Assembly: GCA_037128175.1 (NCBI GenBank)
Contig: JBAXWY010000046.1
Span: 1 to 23,768 of the forward strand
Direction of reading: 5' to 3'
DNA: 23,768 nucleotides
Source: Methanothrix sp.
Lineage (GTDB): Archaea; Halobacteriota; Methanosarcinia; Methanotrichales; Methanotrichaceae
Shown here: positions 1-20,028 of the stretch, one piece after another
How positions within the stretch are numbered: position 1 is the first letter of the stretch
Layout: the number at the start of each line of letters is the position of its first letter
Made by a program: the position numbers and the translations under genes
The notes under the pieces: generated by a model
The model's input: only the letters and a program-made list of their open reading frames with translations
Database searches by the model: none
What the model was told of the DNA's origin: nothing

Positions 1-759
1 ATAGCTGTTTTGGTTATTATCGCCATGGCCGTAGTAGCCACTGCCGGTGCAGCAAATTACATGTACGAAAAGGCATCGGTCAAGGGCGTTGGATACAAGA
101 ACGTAGAGATGATCATTTCCACCCAGACTGGCTTTAACGGCCAGAAGCTGGTAGAGAAAGAGTCCGGCTCCGGTAACGTCATCACCGAGAGGACTGAGCT
201 GGAAGCCGAGAGGCAGCTCAACAGGACCTACGATCAGATCGAAGGGAATTGCCAATGGCCAACCGGCATTGCATGCCCCATGGACTACATCAACTTCACC
301 AAGGAAGCTGAGTTCGAGTACATGCCCGTCTCATACCAGACCGGCACCTACGACCAGAAGTGGGTAGAGAAGCTGTGCGTACAGAACTACAGAATCGGCG
401 CTGTGCTGACTGAGATGTACACCCATGCTGAGCACCTGCAGAAGACCACCGAGGTCAAGACCAGAGGCTACAGCAAGGTGTCCTACAGCGGTAATCCTAA
501 CGACGGAACTGACGGCAGCTGCCCAGCTTGCTGCACCGGTGTTCTCGAAGCTAACCTGAACAGCAACGTAATCGGTGTTGCACACATCGGCTGGATCTCC
601 CGCGACCCCAACGCTGACAACCAGCTCAAAGGCCGCCATGCTGAGTACGGCAGATCTGTCGAGGACCTGACTGGCGTCTTCTCCATCGAGAAGTTCATCC
701 AGCTCTGGGGCAACTCCACATGCGGCGCAATCAGCGTTGACTGGCTGCCCTGCGTGTAG
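1..759 (+). CDS. Secreted Cys-rich structural protein, copy 1 (5'-truncated by window edge); candidate MspA-type sheath subunit
   Basis: Frame is open from base 1 (IAVLVIIAM...), so it lacks only the MRKL start seen in the other copies. Signal peptide ends ATAGA|ANY, there are 8 Cys, and codons are strongly C-ending. The sheath assignment is inference. Confidence 0.8.
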   Translation: MAVLVIIAMAVVATAGAANYMYEKASVKGVGYKNVEMIISTQTGFNGQKLVEKESGSGNVITERTELEAERQLNRTYDQIEGNCQWPTGIACPMDYINFTKEAEFEYMPVSYQTGTYDQKWVEKLCVQNYRIGAVLTEMYTHAEHLQKTTEVKTRGYSKVSYSGNPNDGTDGSCPACCTGVLEANLNSNVIGVAHIGWISRDPNADNQLKGRHAEYGRSVEDLTGVFSIEKFIQLWGNSTCGAISVDWLPCV

Positions 760-1132: not shown

Positions 1133-1903
1133 ATGAGAAAACTGATAGCTGTTTTGGTCATTATCGCCATGGCAATAGTCGCCACAGCCGGTGCAGCCAA
1201 CTACATGTACGAGAAGGCATCGGTTAAGGGCGTTGGATACAAGAACGTAGAGATGATCATTTCCACCCAGACTGGCTTTAACGGCCAGAAGCTGGTAGAG
1301 AAAGAGTCCGGCTCCGGTAACGTCATCACCGAGAGGACTGAGCTGGAAGCCGAGAGGCAGCTCAACAGGACCTACGATCAGATCGAAGGGAATTGCCAAT
1401 GGCCAACCGGCATTGCATGCCCCATGGACTACATCAACTTCACCAAGGAAGCTGAGTTCGAGTACATGCCCGTCTCATACCAGACCGGCACCTACGACCA
1501 GAAGTGGGTAGAGAAGCTGTGCGTACAGAACTACAGAATCGGCGCTGTGCTGACTGAGATGTACACCCACGCTGAGCACCTGCAGAAGACCACCGAGGTC
1601 AAGACCAGAGGCTACAGCAAAGTATCTACAGCTACTGGCCCTGACGGCGTAACTGACGGCAGCTGCCCAGCTTGCTGCACCGGTGTTCTCGAGGCTAACC
1701 TGAACAGCAACGTTATCGGTGTTGCACACATCGGCTGGATCTCTAGAGACCCCAACGCTGACAACCAGCTCAAGGGCCGCCATGCTGAGTACGGCAGATC
1801 TGTCGAGGACCTGACTGGCGTCTTCTCCATCGAGAAGTTCATCCAGCTCTGGGGCAACTCCACATGCGGCGCAATCAGCGTTGACTGGCTGCCCTGCGTG
1901 TAG
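1133..1903 (+). CDS. Secreted Cys-rich structural protein, copy 2 (256 aa); candidate MspA-type sheath subunit
   Basis: ATG at 1133 follows GGAGG. The N-terminus MRKLIAVLVIIAMAIVATAGA matches copies 4 and 5, so the ORF-track start at 1112 is an over-extension. Confidence 0.85.
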   Translation: MRKLIAVLVIIAMAIVATAGAANYMYEKASVKGVGYKNVEMIISTQTGFNGQKLVEKESGSGNVITERTELEAERQLNRTYDQIEGNCQWPTGIACPMDYINFTKEAEFEYMPVSYQTGTYDQKWVEKLCVQNYRIGAVLTEMYTHAEHLQKTTEVKTRGYSKVSTATGPDGVTDGSCPACCTGVLEANLNSNVIGVAHIGWISRDPNADNQLKGRHAEYGRSVEDLTGVFSIEKFIQLWGNSTCGAISVDWLPCV

Positions 1904-2373: not shown

Positions 2374-3144
2374 ATGAGAAAATTATTAGCTGTTTTGGTT
2401 ATTATCGCCATGGCCGTAGTAGCCACTGCCGGTGCAGCAAATTACATGTACGAAAAGGCATCGGTCAAGGGCGTTGGATACAAGAACGTAGAGATGATCA
2501 TTTCCACCCAGACTGGCTTTAACGGCCAGAAGCTGGTAGAGAAAGAGTCCGGCTCCGGTAACGTCATCACCGAGAGGACTGAGCTGGAAGCCGAGAGGCA
2601 GCTCAACAGGACCTACGATCAGATCGAAGGGAATTGCCAATGGCCAACCGGCATTGCATGCCCCATGGACTACATCAACTTCACCAAGGAAGCTGAGTTC
2701 GAGTACATGCCCGTCTCATACCAGACCGGCACCTACGACCAGAAGTGGGTAGAGAAGCTGTGCGTACAGAACTACAGAATCGGCGCTGTGCTGACTGAGA
2801 TGTACACCCACGCTGAGCACCTGCAGAAGACCACCGAGGTCAAGACCAGAGGCTACAGCAAAGTATCTACAGCTACTGGCCCTGACGGCGTAACTGACGG
2901 CAGCTGCCCAGCTTGCTGCACCGGTGTTCTCGAGGCTAACCTGAACAGCAACGTTATCGGTGTTGCACACATCGGCTGGATCTCTAGAGACCCCAACGCT
3001 GACAACCAGCTCAAGGGCCGCCATGCTGAGTACGGCAGATCTGTCGAGGACCTGACTGGCGTCTTCTCCATCGAGAAGTTCATCCAGCTCTGGGGCAACT
3101 CCACATGCGGCGCAATCAGCGTTGACTGGCTGCCCTGCGTGTAG
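2374..3144 (+). CDS. Secreted Cys-rich structural protein, copy 3 (256 aa); mature protein identical to copy 2
   Basis: ATG at 2374 follows GGAGGTG. The upstream extension to 2185 is non-coding leader. Confidence 0.85.
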   Translation: MRKLLAVLVIIAMAVVATAGAANYMYEKASVKGVGYKNVEMIISTQTGFNGQKLVEKESGSGNVITERTELEAERQLNRTYDQIEGNCQWPTGIACPMDYINFTKEAEFEYMPVSYQTGTYDQKWVEKLCVQNYRIGAVLTEMYTHAEHLQKTTEVKTRGYSKVSTATGPDGVTDGSCPACCTGVLEANLNSNVIGVAHIGWISRDPNADNQLKGRHAEYGRSVEDLTGVFSIEKFIQLWGNSTCGAISVDWLPCV

Positions 3145-3377: not shown

Positions 3378-4226
3378 ATGAGAAAACTGATAGCTGTTTT
3401 GGTTATTATCGCCATGACCATAGTAGCCACAGCCGGTGCAGCCAACTACATGTACGAAAAGGCATCGGTCAAAGGCGTTGGATACAAGAACGTAGAGATG
3501 ATCATTTCTACCCAGACCGGCTTTAACGGCCAGAAGCTGGTCGAGAAAGAGTCCGGCTCGGGTAACGTCATCACCGAGCGAACTGAGCTTGAGGCGGAGA
3601 GGCAGCTAGAACGATATAAACATAGGACTACACAGGCGGTGCCAAAAGCGCCTACAAACGGATATGCATCTCTCGGTGATTGGGTTCCAATTGGATATCC
3701 ATATAGGGGTGGCTTGGATGGAGGATGCGATTGGCCGACCGGCACTGCCTGTCCCATGGACTACATCAACTTCACCAAGGAAGCTGAGTTCGAGTACATG
3801 CCCGTCTCATACCAGACCGGCACCTACGACCAGAAGTGGGTAGAGAAGCTGTGCGTACAGAACTACAGAATCGGCGCTGTGCTGACTGAGATGTACACCC
3901 ACGCTGAGCACCTGCAGAAGACCACCGAGGTCAAGACCAGGGGATACGGTAGCATTAACTTTGTTGAGGGCGACGTTATTGATAGCTGCCCCGCTTGCTG
4001 CACCGGTGTTCTCGAAGCTAACCTGAACAGCAACGTTATCGGTGTGGCCCACATCGGCTGGATCTCCAGAGATCCCAACGCTGACAACCAGCTCAAAGGC
4101 CGCCATGCTGAATACGGGCGATCGGTCGAGGACCTGACTGGCGTCTTCTCCATCGAGAAGTTCATCCAGCTCTGGGGCAACTCCACCTGCGGCGCAATCA
4201 GCGTTGACTGGCTGCCCTGCGTGTAG
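3378..4226 (+). CDS. Secreted Cys-rich structural protein, copy 4 (282 aa, long loop-1 variant)
   Basis: GGAGG precedes the ATG. Same scaffold as copies 1-3, with loop 1 longer by 29 aa and loop 2 shorter by 3 aa. Confidence 0.85.
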   Translation: MRKLIAVLVIIAMTIVATAGAANYMYEKASVKGVGYKNVEMIISTQTGFNGQKLVEKESGSGNVITERTELEAERQLERYKHRTTQAVPKAPTNGYASLGDWVPIGYPYRGGLDGGCDWPTGTACPMDYINFTKEAEFEYMPVSYQTGTYDQKWVEKLCVQNYRIGAVLTEMYTHAEHLQKTTEVKTRGYGSINFVEGDVIDSCPACCTGVLEANLNSNVIGVAHIGWISRDPNADNQLKGRHAEYGRSVEDLTGVFSIEKFIQLWGNSTCGAISVDWLPCV

Positions 4227-4466: not shown

Positions 4467-5315
4467 ATGAGAAAACTGATAGCTGTTTTGGTTACTATCG
4501 CCATTGCCATAGTAGCCACAGCCGGTGCAGCCAACTACATGTACGAAAAGGCATCGGTCAAAGGCGTTGGATACAAGAACGTAGAGATGATCATTTCTAC
4601 CCAGACCGGCTTTAACGGCCAGAAGCTGGTCGAGAAAGAGTCCGGCTCGGGTAACGTCATCACCGAGCGAACTGAGCTTGAGGCGGAGAGGCAGCTAGAA
4701 CGATATAAACATAGGACTACACAGGCGGTGCCAAAAGCGCCTACAAACGGATATGCATCTCTCGGTGATTGGGTTCCAATTGGATATCCATATAGGGGTG
4801 GCTTGGATGGAGGATGCGATTGGCCGACCGGCACTGCCTGTCCCATGGACTACATCAACTTCACCAAGGAAGCTGAGTTCGAGTACATGCCCGTCTCATA
4901 CCAGACCGGCACCTACGACCAGAAGTGGGTAGAGAAGCTGTGCGTACAGAACTACAGAATCGGCGCTGTGCTGACTGAGATGTACACCCACGCTGAGCAC
5001 CTGCAGAAGACCACCGAGGTCAAGACCAGGGGATACGGTAGCATTAACTTTGTTGAGGGCGACGTTATTGATAGCTGCCCCGCTTGCTGCACCGGTGTTC
5101 TCGAAGCTAACCTGAACAGCAACGTTATCGGTGTGGCCCACATCGGCTGGATCTCCAGAGATCCCAACGCTGACAACCAGCTCAAAGGCCGCCATGCTGA
5201 ATACGGGCGATCGGTCGAGGACCTGACTGGCGTCTTCTCCATCGAGAAGTTCATCCAGCTCTGGGGCAACTCCACCTGCGGCGCTATCAGTGTTGATTGG
5301 CTCCCCTGCGTGTAA
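4467..5315 (+). CDS. Secreted Cys-rich structural protein, copy 5 (282 aa); mature protein identical to copy 4
   Basis: GAGGTG precedes the ATG. Differs from copy 4 in signal-peptide codons, the last synonymous codons and the stop codon. Confidence 0.85.
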   Translation: MRKLIAVLVTIAIAIVATAGAANYMYEKASVKGVGYKNVEMIISTQTGFNGQKLVEKESGSGNVITERTELEAERQLERYKHRTTQAVPKAPTNGYASLGDWVPIGYPYRGGLDGGCDWPTGTACPMDYINFTKEAEFEYMPVSYQTGTYDQKWVEKLCVQNYRIGAVLTEMYTHAEHLQKTTEVKTRGYGSINFVEGDVIDSCPACCTGVLEANLNSNVIGVAHIGWISRDPNADNQLKGRHAEYGRSVEDLTGVFSIEKFIQLWGNSTCGAISVDWLPCV

Positions 5316-5568: not shown

Positions 5569-6363
5569 ATGAAGGGAGTAGTAGGAATAGTAGTACTTGC
5601 AATTGCCCTTATGGGGCTATGTGGTACTGTGATGGCCAATCCGCCCATAGTTCCGCCCGTACAGTATGAGCAGTTTTGTGAAGCACATAAGGTATCCGGA
5701 ACCGGAATTATCGATGTCAGCACATCGGTAATCGACAAAAAGATCGCACTCGAGTATTTCAACACCATGAATGGCGACGGAGATCTCGAGCTGGACCAGG
5801 AGACCGCGTACTCACAGAATGCCGACAAACTGAGGAGGAATGTGTCCTCTGTAAATGGTGGAAATGAATCCGCTCTGAACCTCATCCAGACCACGAAGTT
5901 GACTTATGCGGGCGAGACGCCCTTGACCGGTGGCAAACTCCTCAACTCCAAGGCCTTCTACGGAGGCATTGGTGCCAATGTGCAGGAGCTTTTCTCTGTA
6001 AATGAGATGGAACAGGATCAGACCGCGTTCTTTGCCTCAACCACGCCCTATGAGACACCATACGGCGCACCTGAGGATCTGCCTGGCCTGCTCAAGAATG
6101 CCGGCAGAGATACCGCTGCAGTCGAGCAGCTCATGACGGCCAGCAATGGTGTATATGTTCCGTCCCATCTGGTTGGTCTCGAGACCAAGAACTCCTTCAA
6201 TGGTACCTGGGGCACCGACGCAACCTGGCATAAGATATTCTACAAGGACATCAAGGCTCACGAGATGTTCACAGGTGTGTTCGAAGCCGAGAAGACCATT
6301 AAGTTCCATGAGAACCCGGTGCCCGATAGAATCCGTGCACCTTGTGAAGGCATAGACTGCTAG
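5569..6363 (+). CDS. Secreted protein, distant paralog of the array protein (candidate minor or accessory subunit)
   Basis: Signal peptide MKGVVGIVVLAIALMGLCGTVMA. Motifs KVSGTG, GIGANVQELF and EMFTGVFEAEKTIKF, and a C-terminal PCEGIDC, are collinear with the array protein. A T run follows the stop. Confidence 0.8.
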   Translation: MKGVVGIVVLAIALMGLCGTVMANPPIVPPVQYEQFCEAHKVSGTGIIDVSTSVIDKKIALEYFNTMNGDGDLELDQETAYSQNADKLRRNVSSVNGGNESALNLIQTTKLTYAGETPLTGGKLLNSKAFYGGIGANVQELFSVNEMEQDQTAFFASTTPYETPYGAPEDLPGLLKNAGRDTAAVEQLMTASNGVYVPSHLVGLETKNSFNGTWGTDATWHKIFYKDIKAHEMFTGVFEAEKTIKFHENPVPDRIRAPCEGIDC

Positions 6364-6422
6364 GCCGAGAAAGCCTGCAGTTTTTTTTCTTTTTTTTTTA
6401 TAGCAATATTCGGGGGGTTCGC

Positions 6423-7592
6423 ATGAAAAGACAAATGATTTGTATAATGATAATATTCATCCTGACGGCAGCCCCGGTAGTGGCCACAGTTGAGGACGCG
6501 GGCATGGCATCTGGTGATGTTTCGAGCAGCCCCTGGACGGGTTCCACATCGCCAACGGTGCCTACATTTTTGCCCAGCCCCTGTTCCGGTGACTATGGTA
6601 GCCTCACCGTTGCCATCGGCCTTACCGGGCCCGAGTCAGAGCCTGATAAATTCTATACAACTCCAGGCAAACCACTGGACTTCATGGTTACGGTAAGTAA
6701 TGATGGTAGAACGGAGGTGGAGGCACAGGTCTGCGTCAAGCCGGAAGGCTGTCCTTTTGAATGGTTTAGCTGGACGACCACTCCCTTGACCATTCCGGCA
6801 GGAGTCTCGCGTTCTGTGGCCCTGCAAGTTTTTCCGGATACAAATGCTGTAGCCGGAGAGTACAGATTCGCGGTGGAGGCCTCGGCCAAATGCCGCAGCT
6901 CTGAGCCACGCCCTGCAAAATTCAAGGTGCAAGCATTCGATTACGCCTCAGAGACCTCTGTGAGCGGCTCTGGCCAATTTCAGATCAATAAAGACCTCAG
7001 ATCCATGAACTCGGGGATCAAGTCCACCAAAAACGTGCTGTTTTCCGGTAGCGTGGATGCTCTGGTGAAGAACGAATACCTGGTGGACAAGGCATTGGGC
7101 AAGAATGCCAATTTCCAGGAACAGGATGCAGTTGACAACTACAATGCCGTCTCTCTTGGGGATGCACTTGTCGGAACGGAGACCTTCAAGAGTTCTGCGA
7201 TCTTCGGAGGGGTGGGGGCCAAAGTCCGGGAAAGTTATGATGTGCAGCAGATGGAGTTCAAGAACCAGGATTTCACATTGCACCAGACGGGATCTCTAAA
7301 GAAGACTGCAGAGTTCAAGACGGCTGATAACTTCACAGGATATTATCTGATAGATGCTAAGCAGGTAATTCCCGGCCAGAAGAACCTGAAGGAGTTTGAG
7401 GAGTATTTCGGATCCTTTGAAATAAACCGGAGAATACTCTTCCGGGATGCCGCAAAATCCAAGACGCCATGCCTGGAAGGAGACTGTCTGAAAGCACCGA
7501 GCATTAAAGCACCGGCACCAAGCTTTACCAGCCCCTGCTTAAGCGGCTCATGCAACGACTTCGTGAACCGGCTGAATTCATTCGGCAAGTGA
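6423..7592 (+). CDS. Secreted protein with an N-terminal Ig-like domain and a C-terminal domain related to the array protein
   Basis: Signal peptide, then a Ser/Pro/Thr linker, then a CARDB/NEW3-like pattern (PGKPLDFMVTVSNDG...LTIPAGVSRSVALQV...AGEYRFAVEA). These are followed by SVSGSG, GVGAKVRESY, EEYFGSFEINRRILF and two PCxxxxC motifs. Confidence 0.8.
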   Translation: MKRQMICIMIIFILTAAPVVATVEDAGMASGDVSSSPWTGSTSPTVPTFLPSPCSGDYGSLTVAIGLTGPESEPDKFYTTPGKPLDFMVTVSNDGRTEVEAQVCVKPEGCPFEWFSWTTTPLTIPAGVSRSVALQVFPDTNAVAGEYRFAVEASAKCRSSEPRPAKFKVQAFDYASETSVSGSGQFQINKDLRSMNSGIKSTKNVLFSGSVDALVKNEYLVDKALGKNANFQEQDAVDNYNAVSLGDALVGTETFKSSAIFGGVGAKVRESYDVQQMEFKNQDFTLHQTGSLKKTAEFKTADNFTGYYLIDAKQVIPGQKNLKEFEEYFGSFEINRRILFRDAAKSKTPCLEGDCLKAPSIKAPAPSFTSPCLSGSCNDFVNRLNSFGK

Positions 7593-7762
7593 GCATGAGC
7601 GTTCTTTTTTTTGGTATTTTCCATTCATTCAGGCAGCCAAAACCTTAAAATAGCCTCCAGAGAAACTGTACCCGGGTGCTAGGGTATCAGGAGAGCGAAG
7701 GCCTGGACTTTTAAAAATGGGCCCGATTCAGGGGCAAACCAGGCGAAAGGAGGTTGTGTGGA

Positions 7763-8491
7763 TTGAAGAGAGAATTGATTGTTTTAGCGTTTATTGTCAT
7801 GGCAATAGTTGGCATGGCAGGTGCTGCCAATTACATGTACGAGAAATCGTCTGTAAAAGGGGTGGGGTATAGAAGCCTGGAGATTGTCATCTCTACACAA
7901 AACGGCTTTAATGGGCAAAAGCTGGTGGAGAAACAGTCCGGCTCAGGAAATGTGATAACTTCCAGAATTGAGCTTGAAGCTGAACGGCAACCTCTGGGCC
8001 TGTCATGTGAATGGCCGACGGGGTCGGATCCCATGGACTACATCAACTTCACCTCGGAGCAGGAGCTGGAGTACATGCCCGTCTCATATCAGACCGGCAC
8101 TTATGACCAGAAATGGGTGGATAAGCTCTGCGTGCAGAACTACAAGATAGGCGCTGTGCTTACTGAGATGTACACTCATGCTGAGCATCTGCAAAAGACC
8201 ACCGAGATCAAGACCAGGGGATACAACAGCAATATAGGTGGCGAAACTACCGTACCCGCTTGCTGCACAGGCGTTCTCGAAGCTAACCTGAACAGCAACG
8301 TCATCGGTGTTGCCCACATCGGATGGATCTCCAGAGATCCCAACGCAGACCCGCAGCTTAAGGGTCGCCATGCTGAGTATGGTCGATCGGTTGAGGACCT
8401 CACGGGTGTCTTCTCCATTGAGAAGTTCATCCAGCTCTGGGGCAACTCCACCTGCGGTGCCGTCAGCGTTGATTGGCTACCCTGCGTGTAA
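7763..8491 (+). CDS. Secreted Cys-rich structural protein, divergent copy 6 (about 242 aa, short loops, 6 Cys)
   Basis: TTG at 7763 is suitably spaced from GGAGG (7749-7753); the alternative start is TTG at 7754. The C-terminal half is nearly identical to copies 1-5. Confidence 0.85.
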   Translation: MKRELIVLAFIVMAIVGMAGAANYMYEKSSVKGVGYRSLEIVISTQNGFNGQKLVEKQSGSGNVITSRIELEAERQPLGLSCEWPTGSDPMDYINFTSEQELEYMPVSYQTGTYDQKWVDKLCVQNYKIGAVLTEMYTHAEHLQKTTEIKTRGYNSNIGGETTVPACCTGVLEANLNSNVIGVAHIGWISRDPNADPQLKGRHAEYGRSVEDLTGVFSIEKFIQLWGNSTCGAVSVDWLPCV

Positions 8492-8895: not shown

Positions 8896-10014
8896 TTAAT
8901 CCGGTTGCCCGTTATTGAGCAAGAGCAGGCTTATGGATATCCCGGAGAAGATGGTCTGGATTCCCAAGATGGAAAATATCATCGCCATCATGGCGTTAGA
9001 TGCTGCATCTAGCGTTCCGAAGCCTGTGGCCCCCCAGCTGAGCATGACTTTCAGGCCGAGAAGGCCGCCTATGGCAAGCAAAACCATGCCGATGATAAGC
9101 TCCTTTTCCAGGGAGTGGTAGCTGATCATCTTTTTTATTCTTCCTGGGCGAGAGAGGCCGTAGGATGCCCCGAAAGCCTCAAAATAAAGTCCCGCCAAGA
9201 GCATCTGGTAGCCTATGATTGCCAGCAGGCCGCCCAGGATCAGGGAATGCATCCTTGATCCACCCTGCAGATACACTCCCGCGGACAGGGTCAGCCCCAA
9301 AAAAAAGGCTAAAAGTCCGGGAACGAGAAGAAACGGCACAGGCCGGTAGAGCATCATGAAACGTACATGTCTCCAGCCATCTGTAAAGGAGTGAAGCTTG
9401 GAAAATCCTTTGCGTGGGTAGTAGGTGATCGGAACTTCTGCAACTCTCAGATCTTTGCAGACCGCCTCAATGAGCATCTCCGAGGCGAACTCCATCCCTC
9501 CCGACCGAAGATTCAGTTTTTTCAGGGCATCTTTGCTAATGGCCCGAAGGCCACAGTGGGCATCAGAAATGCGACTGGAAAATAGTGTGTTCAAAATCCA
9601 GGTGAGAACCGGATTTCCAATATAACGATGAAGTGCAGGCATAGCCCCCGGAAGAACCACTCCCTTGAGCCGCGACCCAATAACCATGTCATAATTGCCG
9701 CTTTGCAGGATGGCGATCATATCCGGAATGGCTTTGGGATCATAGGTCAGATCACCGTCCATGAGAACGATGTATTCCCCTTCCGCCTGCTCGAATCCGG
9801 CCAGGTAAGCATTTCCGTATCCCAGCTTTTGGGGCTTGATAACTTTTGCCCCGCATGATTCAGCAATTGCGGCCGTCTCGTCGCTCGAGCTGTCTGCCAC
9901 CAGAATCTCTCCCAAAAGGTCCATCTCTCGGAAGACCTGCTGGGCTATTTGGATGCATTCACGAATCGTCTCTGCCTCGTTTCTGGTAGGGATGATCAGG
10001 CTTATTGGGGGCAC
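8896..10014 (-). CDS. Glycosyltransferase family 2 (dolichol-phosphate glycosyltransferase-like) with C-terminal transmembrane helices
   Basis: ISLIIPTRNE, ADSSSDET, GYGNA, MDGDLTY (DxD), DMVIGSR, DAHCGLRA, EVPITYYPRKGFSKL, and about four hydrophobic C-terminal segments. Confidence 0.9.
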   Translation of the reverse strand: MPPISLIIPTRNEAETIRECIQIAQQVFREMDLLGEILVADSSSDETAAIAESCGAKVIKPQKLGYGNAYLAGFEQAEGEYIVLMDGDLTYDPKAIPDMIAILQSGNYDMVIGSRLKGVVLPGAMPALHRYIGNPVLTWILNTLFSSRISDAHCGLRAISKDALKKLNLRSGGMEFASEMLIEAVCKDLRVAEVPITYYPRKGFSKLHSFTDGWRHVRFMMLYRPVPFLLVPGLLAFFLGLTLSAGVYLQGGSRMHSLILGGLLAIIGYQMLLAGLYFEAFGASYGLSRPGRIKKMISYHSLEKELIIGMVLLAIGGLLGLKVMLSWGATGFGTLDAASNAMMAMIFSILGIQTIFSGISISLLLLNNGQPD

Positions 10015-18966: not shown

Positions 18967-19353
18967 ATGAAACTCATGCTGCATGTAGCTCCCGGCATTG
19001 TGCGTTATCCTCTCATAGCTTCAGTCATCCTGGAGACGGGCGCTCTGGTGAACATAGAGAGAGCCAGCATCGATGCTGTGAGCGGAGAGATTGTCCTGGA
19101 AGTGCCCCAGGACAAGTGTTTGATGGTAAAGGAGGCATTCGAGAGGCGCGGGGTAAAGGTCGTGCCTCTGGAGATTCCCGTCATCAGAGATGAGAATGAG
19201 TGCGTGCATTGCGGGGCGTGTATTTCCATCTGCCCGACGGGCACATTCCGTTTTGAGGATTGGCGGGTCGTGGCCGATTCTGGCAAGTGCATTCAGTGCG
19301 GAGCCTGCATCATGGGCTGTCCTCAGCGTGCTTTGAAGTTGGTCTTGAAGTAG
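18967..19353 (+). CDS. NIL-domain ferredoxin, iron-sulfur partner of the homocysteine biosynthesis protein (MA1822-type)
   Basis: N-terminal NIL-like domain (LVNIERA) plus CVHCGACISICP and CIQCGACIMGCP. Lies 3 bp downstream of the previous gene. Confidence 0.9.
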   Translation: MKLMLHVAPGIVRYPLIASVILETGALVNIERASIDAVSGEIVLEVPQDKCLMVKEAFERRGVKVVPLEIPVIRDENECVHCGACISICPTGTFRFEDWRVVADSGKCIQCGACIMGCPQRALKLVLK

Positions 19354-20028
19354 CTCTTAGTATTAAATTTTTTTTGTTGGCCATGATTAAGTACTTATTA
19401 TTGATCAATACGTATATAACATAATAATTATATGTAACACGTAGTTTCTGGTCGTTCTTGATATAGACAAACAACGATAATTTATATTAATATTATTAAT
19501 ACGTATTTATTCGCCTAACCCTGCCACGCTCAATAAATCGTCATATTTAAATAGTTTTAAATATATTTTTTTTGAAAGCCGCGATTCGATATGACATGTT
19601 ATTTTGAGATTTTTCAGATAGCAATCTTTGCGCACACTTATAAATAAATATACAATTAGTTTTTTCGTGAAATATTCATGTTTGTATAGATTACGATTTG
19701 CGCGCGCTGCTGTCTATATTTTTAATCAAAAAATTTTAATTAATATAATTTTTAAATTGAAAAGAAATAATGTAATTTGTATTCCAAATTTGTGGCAAAT
19801 TTATTAAAATATTTATTAATCTAATTCAGTTATTAATTTAACAATCAAAAGAAATGGTAACTTATATATGTTGGGACAGTTAATACTCAGAATATAGGTT
19901 AGTGGTGTATATTTTAGCGGTTGTAGAGGGAGATATGATATTTGATACTGATCCGCTATGTGATATGGAAAAGCAATTATTAATTCAATCCTTTTTACAT
20001 ATTTTATTTATTAGTTCTGTTACTACAG
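19354..20028. other. Long AT-rich intergenic region
   Basis: No ORF of 60 aa or more in the track. Visibly far more AT-rich than the flanking genes. Confidence 0.85.

Follow-up and report, generated by a model that had tools for sequence, protein, structure and literature searches.

Sheath (SH) proteins have been defined by structure, as a core of two six-stranded antiparallel beta sheets with variable cap domains (Medvedeva, Borrel and Gribaldo, ISME J 2024, PMC11576556; below, Medvedeva et al.), and that work describes their genes as clustered, with recent tandem duplicates among them and up to 40 copies per genome. Here we analyze the SH genes in a stretch of 23,768 nucleotides (nt) from Methanothrix sp. 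(assembly GCA_037128175.1, contig JBAXWY010000046.1, positions 1-23,768, forward strand), referred to as the window, and in particular two genes, 5569 and 6423, that lie between copies of a third, amplified gene, called here the array gene.

Two described systems frame the comparison. For Methanothrix thermoacetophila, Table S2 of Medvedeva et al. lists the SH proteins 00701 (362 amino acids, aa), 00702 (271) and 00703 (243), and for M. soehngenii it lists 00297 (236 aa), 00298 (393), 00299 (258), 00303 (260), 00304 and 00305 (240 each), with one core domain in each protein. Their Table S4 places the M. thermoacetophila gene Mthe_0668 first among transcripts (0.92 reads per kilobase per million, RPKM) and Mthe_0667 third of the top 20 (0.62), both labelled 'Sheath protein', and the legend of Fig. 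1C describes an AlphaFold2 (AF2) model in which the two proteins alternate in one continuous ring. The second system is the SH protein of Methanospirillum hungatei (WP_011449234.1), which Medvedeva et al. group by structure with the Methanothrix proteins. As reported by Wang et al. (Nat Commun 2023, PMC10593813), who deposited maps only, it likewise forms rings edge to edge through an amyloid-like beta core, with cysteines proposed as disulfide links between rings; its cap domain, made of six helices and a sheet, is unlike the array, 5569 and 6423 proteins.

The first 8.5 kb of the window are an SH gene cluster of Methanothrix. By the list of open reading frames (ORFs), it consists of eight genes on the same strand with secreted-looking, Cys-containing products: six copies of the array gene, with 5569 and 6423 between the fifth and sixth copies.

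1-759, plus strand: array-type SH gene copy, 5' end cut by the contig start (ORF list; 97% identity to the 1112 copy)
1133-1903, plus strand: array-type SH gene, 256 aa, orthologue of Mthe_0668 (ABK14458.1) (77% identity; AF2 model)
2374-3144, plus strand: array-type SH gene copy, 256 aa (254 of 256 residues as in the 1133 copy)
3378-4226, plus strand: array-type SH gene copy, 282 aa, with an insertion after residue 79 (ORF list; the short form is matched at 1-79 and 113-282)
4467-5315, plus strand: array-type SH gene copy, 282 aa (279 of 282 residues as in the 3378 copy)
5569-6363, plus strand: gene 5569, 264 aa, second SH sequence family, orthologue of Mthe_0667 (ABK14457.1) (53% identity, E 9e-98)
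6364-6422, plus strand: 59-bp spacer with a T-rich run (T8 C T10) directly 3' of the 5569 stop codon (sequence)
6423-7592, plus strand: gene 6423, 389 aa, with a signal-like N-terminus, a beta-sandwich-like domain, an SH core and a Cys-rich tail (BLASTP, profiles, orthologues)
6660-6884, plus strand: N-terminal domain of 6423 (residues 80-154), weakly like NPCBM_assoc/NEW3, an immunoglobulin (Ig)-like beta sandwich (Pfam PF10633, sub-threshold)
7754-8491, plus strand: diverged array-type SH gene, 245 aa from a TTG start (82% identity to the 1112 copy)

A sequence-only reading of this locus had proposed that 5569 and 6423, both apparently hypothetical genes, are cryptic remote paralogs of the array protein that share its fold. 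That proposal is supported by profile alignment, by AF2 models of the array and 5569 proteins in which long hairpins carry the shared motifs in equivalent strands, by bridge proteins and by the published listing of SH proteins. The evidence supports the view that the array and 5569 proteins, together with the core of 6423, are diverged paralogs with a common SH cross-beta core, and we assign a probability of about 0.72 to the whole explanation, in which these paralogs assemble edge to edge into the rings of the sheath.

At the level of sequence, there is no doubt that the proteins 5569 and 6423 are related: BLASTP aligns them with an E value of 4e-7 over 146 columns, and a profile made from seven paralogs of 5569 in the genome, with 6423 left out, retrieves 6423 in its first round. 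The part of 6423 that belongs to the 5569 family comprises about residues 166-355. Ahead of it, the match to NPCBM_assoc (PF10633) has an E value of 1.4e-4 and 22.4 bits, below the cut-off of 24.4; among orthologues of 6423 the scores are 23.7 and 19.1 bits, with no match in one. Apart from this sub-threshold hit, Pfam and NCBIfam scans of five cluster proteins returned no family. The database proteins nearest to those of the cluster bear the name Methanothrix or Methanotrichaceae, or none.

The array family is joined to the 5569 family by profile-profile alignment. With profiles enriched by out-of-family members and stripped of signal peptides, hhalign gives a probability of 81.8%, a P value of 1.1e-5 and a score of 42.8 over 207 columns, placing mature residues 6-226 of one family against 10-226 of the other. 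This alignment is colinear over nearly the full length and lies above all controls: the control scores were 15.7 and 16.3 for reversed profiles and peaked at 17.7 for 60 column shuffles and at 30.4 for 60 shuffles of 10-column blocks, the alignment score exceeding 120 of 120 shuffles. The first profiles, built from 74 and 40 sequences, gave a probability of 18% and a P value of 0.0013 over 89 colinear columns running from motif block 2 to block 4, and their score of 31.0 compares with 17.2 and 17.1 from reversed profiles and with a maximum of 20.5 in 100 column shuffles. A probability of 80% obtained in the global mode of hhalign was set aside, since signal peptides were included and the global statistics are unreliable.

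Three array-type ORFs from another family of the phylum (f13) act as bridges, each being matched by both the array and the 5569-family profiles.

L056, 2395-3234, minus strand: bridge array-type SH ORF (both profiles)
L057, 2448-3188, minus strand: bridge array-type SH ORF (both profiles)
L053, 2359-3228, minus strand: bridge array-type SH ORF (both profiles)

The bridge ORFs combine a first strand with the motif VEGTG, the DWLPC of the array protein and the terminal GDC of the 5569 type. The best of them, the ORF of L056, matches the array profile (A2) with an E value of 2.2e-17 and the 5569-family profile (A3) with 3e-6 when 258 ORFs are searched (3.5e-5 at Z 3000), a score of which part falls in the signal peptide.

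The sequence-only reading rested on four motif blocks said to occur in the same order in the three proteins, and every quoted string is indeed found, in that order, in the array, 5569 and 6423 translations.

Array protein (256-aa form, 1133-1903): blocks 1-4 at residues 27, 135, 189 and 225
5569 protein: blocks 1-4 at residues 38, 133, 205 and 232 (nt 5680, 5965, 6181 and 6262), with Pro-Cys at nt 6340
6423 protein: blocks 1-4 at residues 176, 263, 299 and 326

Blocks 1, 2 and 4, together with the Pro-Cys motif, are paired in the alignment of the array and 5569 families by hhalign. The register given for block 3 does not hold, since hhalign sets the array segment NSNVIGVAHIGW against NGVYVPSHLVGL of 5569 and not against ETKNSFNG; both quoted strings nevertheless lie within the fifth long strand of the AF2 models, in which blocks 1, 2, 3 and 4 correspond to strands 1, 4, 5 and 6 of both the array and the 5569 protein. 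A terminal Pro-Cys had also been claimed for all three proteins. It is present in the array protein (..LPCV) and nearly so in 5569 (residues 258-259 of 264), but not in 6423, in which the aligned Pro-Cys stands at 349-350 of 389, 40 residues ahead of the C-terminus, and a second one at 371-372.

The two predicted structures are both all-beta and built of long hairpins. The array model (1133-1903) has a mean predicted local distance difference test (pLDDT) of 81.2 and a predicted template modelling score (pTM) of 0.77, and consists of an N-terminal helix followed entirely by long beta strands; the 5569 model (pLDDT 78.0, pTM 0.70) has an N-terminal helix followed by long beta hairpins. The latter contains six strands of about 22 residues (35-56, 61-82, 105-127, 135-156, 201-221 and 227-247), with two short helices (168-178 and 182-188) inserted between strands 4 and 5, and DSSP strings show a comparable set of long strands in the array protein. 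The N-termini, hydrophobic in the translations, are modelled as helices at residues 2-17 (array) and 5-15 (5569), while the Cys-bearing tails are flexible, with low pLDDT, in both models; these tails may provide the disulfide links that have been reported for sheaths.

Structure searches with VIA (48,161 chains) returned only barrel-like or jellyroll-like pieces, with best Z scores of 7.2 and 8.2, and 19 of the 50 listed PDB entries were common to the array and 5569 models, a weak proxy for a shared fold. The best match of the 5569 model was the beta-jellyroll protein LptA (2r19_A; Z 8.2, root-mean-square deviation (rmsd) 3.7, 96 residues aligned), which the array model matched with Z 5.2, rmsd 4.6 and 107 residues. 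LptA/OstA proteins follow the same principle of edge-to-edge polymerization, stacking head to tail into a continuous sheet; however, there is no Pfam match, the Z score is near the level common for unmatched models, and LptA is a bacterial periplasmic lipid carrier; the likeness is one of architecture only. A search of viral structures (BFVD) with the array model gave nothing at E <= 0.001 and recovered no viral SH-like protein, and an ESM Atlas search with 5569 gave no usable match.

Both protein types can be tied to published SH proteins. In a genome of another genus, one locus (L043) carries the same trio of genes, and its 271-aa and 243-aa proteins are letter-identical to Mthe_0667 and Mthe_0668. 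The array and 5569 proteins are orthologues of these two at the identities given above, and the third gene of that locus, adjoining Mthe_0667, encodes a protein with 59% identity to 6423. A match of 6423 to the published SH protein 00701 is based on length and position only, as Table S2 gives them. The cluster of the window shares with that of M. thermoacetophila its orthologues, the gene order with a third SH gene behind, the long-hairpin beta core and the idea of a mixed ring. It differs in having at least six copies of the amplified array type, two of which contain an inserted segment, and in that the helical insert of the 5569 type diverges in sequence between genera. The SH family of the array, 5569 and 6423 proteins is already described in Medvedeva et al., and the paralogy of the array and 5569 types is already in print there through structure comparison. 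The family was rediscovered from raw sequence because Pfam and NCBIfam hold no model for SH genes.

The association of these gene types is conserved across the family Methanotrichaceae. Genes of the 6423 type occur in at least 78 of 81 genomes, with full-length matches in all 16 genera, and 5569-type genes, at E <= 1e-40, in at least 76 of the 81. Among at least 82 full-length 6423-type matches (70 genomes), 77 (66 genomes) are immediately preceded on the same strand by a 5569-family gene, at a median gap of 61 bp; 12 of these 77 assignments rest on weaker matches, and two of the remaining five matches lie at contig starts. An array-type gene follows the 5569-6423 pair in 11 of 11 loci of the same genus, and the order array, 5569 type, 6423 type is seen in three genera. 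The sequence-only reading had asked whether both genes always accompany the array gene in single copy. The single copy is contradicted by at least four 5569-type matches (E <= 1e-40) in this genome and by at least 12 genomes with two 6423-type matches.

Across 401 genomes of the phylum, 18 have both families, one has the 5569 family alone and three have the array family alone; the four single-family genomes are 75-86% complete, and related genomes are not independent. Outside Methanotrichaceae, both families were found only in two further families of these genomes (f13 and f6), where the gene types are adjacent too. With these sequence profiles, neither SH family was found in the 401 genomes outside three families of the phylum, and the profiles gave no sequence link to the Methanospirillum SH protein.

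A likely mode of assembly is suggested by complex prediction. The mature array and 5569 proteins scored 0.61 together, the best of three controls scoring 0.00; the mark for this score is attained in 116 of 157 solved complexes and in 2 of 215 mismatched pairs, with a partner pLDDT of at least 50. The confident contacts are antiparallel, between array residues 218-241 (last strand, block 4) and 5569 residues 33-58 (first strand, block 1). In the prediction, neighbors join into a continuous cross-beta sheet, a result that expresses model confidence and is not a measurement. Blocks 1 and 4 may have been kept between the families because they form the mating edges of neighboring subunits.

On this model, a signal peptide would stand ahead of each SH core of long antiparallel hairpins, and a flexible tail with cysteines behind it. 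Exported subunits would join edge to edge through antiparallel pairing of the last strand of one (block 4) and the first strand of its neighbor (block 1), and the resulting continuous beta sheet would close into the rings, or hoops, of the sheath. The array and 5569 types would both be major ring subunits that copolymerize in the cell, and the cysteines of the C-terminal Pro-Cys motifs may cross-link subunits or rings through disulfides. The 6423 type, in which an extra N-terminal Ig-like domain replaces the helical insert, would probably be a less abundant variant in the same lattice.

Several results weigh against common descent and a common assembly. Pairwise BLASTP of the array protein against 5569 and 6423 is not significant (best E 0.52 and 0.83), iterated HMMER searches within the genome never joined the array family (11 ORFs) to the 5569 family (9 ORFs), and profile searches of the same genome gave no cross-match between them; 5569-family profiles likewise had 0 matches among 150 listed array-family representatives. 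The probability of the first profile pair is just 18%, and without the three bridge sequences the alignment shrinks to 27 columns around block 4 (probability 42%, P 2.6e-4). Solved SH structures were sought in the PDB by sequence, with nothing better than E 0.26, and by VIA structure search, and none was found by either. The runs of the complex prediction agree in at least 0% of contacts, so that agreement is not assured, and one of the three scored 0.19. Finally, the expression figures come from a published table for another genus.

The pairwise BLASTP result, the low first probability and the need for three bridge sequences in the full-length alignment are what would be expected if the resemblance were convergent or due to chance, between secreted beta-rich proteins that have short motifs in common but neither descent nor fold. 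We consider this very improbable, given a 207-column colinear alignment that outscores even shuffles of 10-column blocks, bridge proteins that hold terminal motifs of both families, an equivalent strand order in the two models and a published structure-based family that, in Medvedeva et al., includes both. The same separation of the families in every HMMER search would also fit a 5569 family that builds its own structure, for instance the spacer plugs or a distinct layer, and does not mix with the array protein in the rings; two separate structures that are both required would explain the long joint retention as well, and Medvedeva et al. give the plug proteins of Methanothrix as unknown. Against this improbable arrangement stand the predicted hetero-interface, which is confident relative to controls and uses the conserved edge strands, and the mixing of both types in the published AF2 ring.

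The sequence-only reading had further suggested that 5569 and 6423 could act as nucleator, cap, spacer-plug or anchoring subunits, in the manner of CsgB beside CsgA in curli. There is a likeness, in that curli too have a secreted beta-rich major subunit with a diverged paralog encoded beside it, and polymerize by strand pairing. A specialized, low-abundance role for one or both proteins would fit an array gene amplified to at least six copies in the window vs one 5569 and one 6423 gene in the cluster, the conservation of the 5569-6423 pair beside the array across the family, and the absence of a 6423 orthologue from the 20 most transcribed genes listed by Medvedeva et al., who also raise the possibility that certain SH variants link hoops or support plugs. 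However, Mthe_0667 ranks third in that table at about two thirds of the transcript level of Mthe_0668, as fits a stoichiometric subunit and not a minor nucleator, the published ring alternates both proteins, and genomes contain several 5569-type paralogs. The architecture also differs, with long antiparallel hairpins here vs a five-repeat beta solenoid in curli, and none of the five proteins matched the Curlin repeat family (Pfam, E <= 1). The nucleator role is therefore not supported for 5569, and we regard the role model as a whole as unlikely; 6423 by itself may have a minor or special role. Because the array protein's last strand and the first strand of 5569 are paired in the complex prediction, it is more likely that 5569 is a co-major ring subunit than a CsgB-like nucleator.

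Other features of the cluster and window were observed. The 282-aa array copies differ from the 256-aa copies by an extra segment (window 3615-3713 and 4704-4802) that lies between hairpins, in the cap region, and RNA-library contigs that skip 124-146 bases, from 4696 to 4821-4843, match forms without it. Another contig (G000:C54:16171-16251) ends within the first 27 codons of an array copy, and the window itself starts inside one; because the assembly broke the array, the copy number in the window is a lower bound. The array-family profile also matches, with E values of 1e-13 to 7e-9, a segment (model positions about 50-223) of very long proteins of this genome, encoded by ORFs of 1353-1984 aa on contigs C48, C63, C29 and C28 of G000, with C1:99449-99883 also listed. 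These may be the 'sheath adhesins' of Medvedeva et al. Just behind the cluster, at 8896-10014 on the minus strand, lies a family-2 glycosyltransferase with C-terminal membrane segments (PF00535, E 1.3e-26), which could be a glycosylator of sheath or envelope proteins. Farther on, between a ferredoxin-like gene and a long tetratricopeptide-repeat gene, the G+C content falls to 0.36 at 19,001-20,000, vs about 0.5-0.58 in neighboring windows of the sequence.

Oligo-T tracts terminate transcription in archaea. T-rich runs follow the stop codons of 5569 (T8 C T10, within 6364-6422) and 6423 (T9, within 7593-7615), and these putative archaeal terminators could set differing transcript levels within the cluster. 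Contigs from RNA libraries (four runs from four studies) match both genes: one covers 5712-6202 of 5569 with 1 other letter (X1, record 1), and two lie on 6423, at 7248-7547 with 3 other letters (X1, record 8) and at 6466-7377 with 35 other letters (X7, record 28). All 20 RNA runs consist of contigs, from which neither transcript level nor strand can be read, and DNA may be present in such libraries; none of the matches listed spans the spacer between 5569 and 6423. A bolder proposal, which we hold to be doubtful, is that the two SH families are obligate partners of an alternating heteropolymer with blocks 1 and 4 as complementary edges. In that case the cluster layout would set the stoichiometry, and read-through of the oligo-T run would yield a rare subunit with an Ig-like domain that might mark ring or hoop boundaries or plug attachment sites.

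Methanothrix is a major biogenic source of methane. The sheath, a protein tube that encloses its cell filaments, ranks with the toughest known protein assemblies. Databases still list its SH genes as 'hypothetical', and Pfam and NCBIfam offer no model for them. The present analysis extends the published structural grouping in three ways: bridge proteins connect the two Methanothrix SH families at the level of sequence, the constancy of the 5569-6423 pair is counted, and the conserved motifs are mapped onto a predicted subunit interface. These additions leave the overall picture unchanged and are useful for designing polymerization or labelling experiments.

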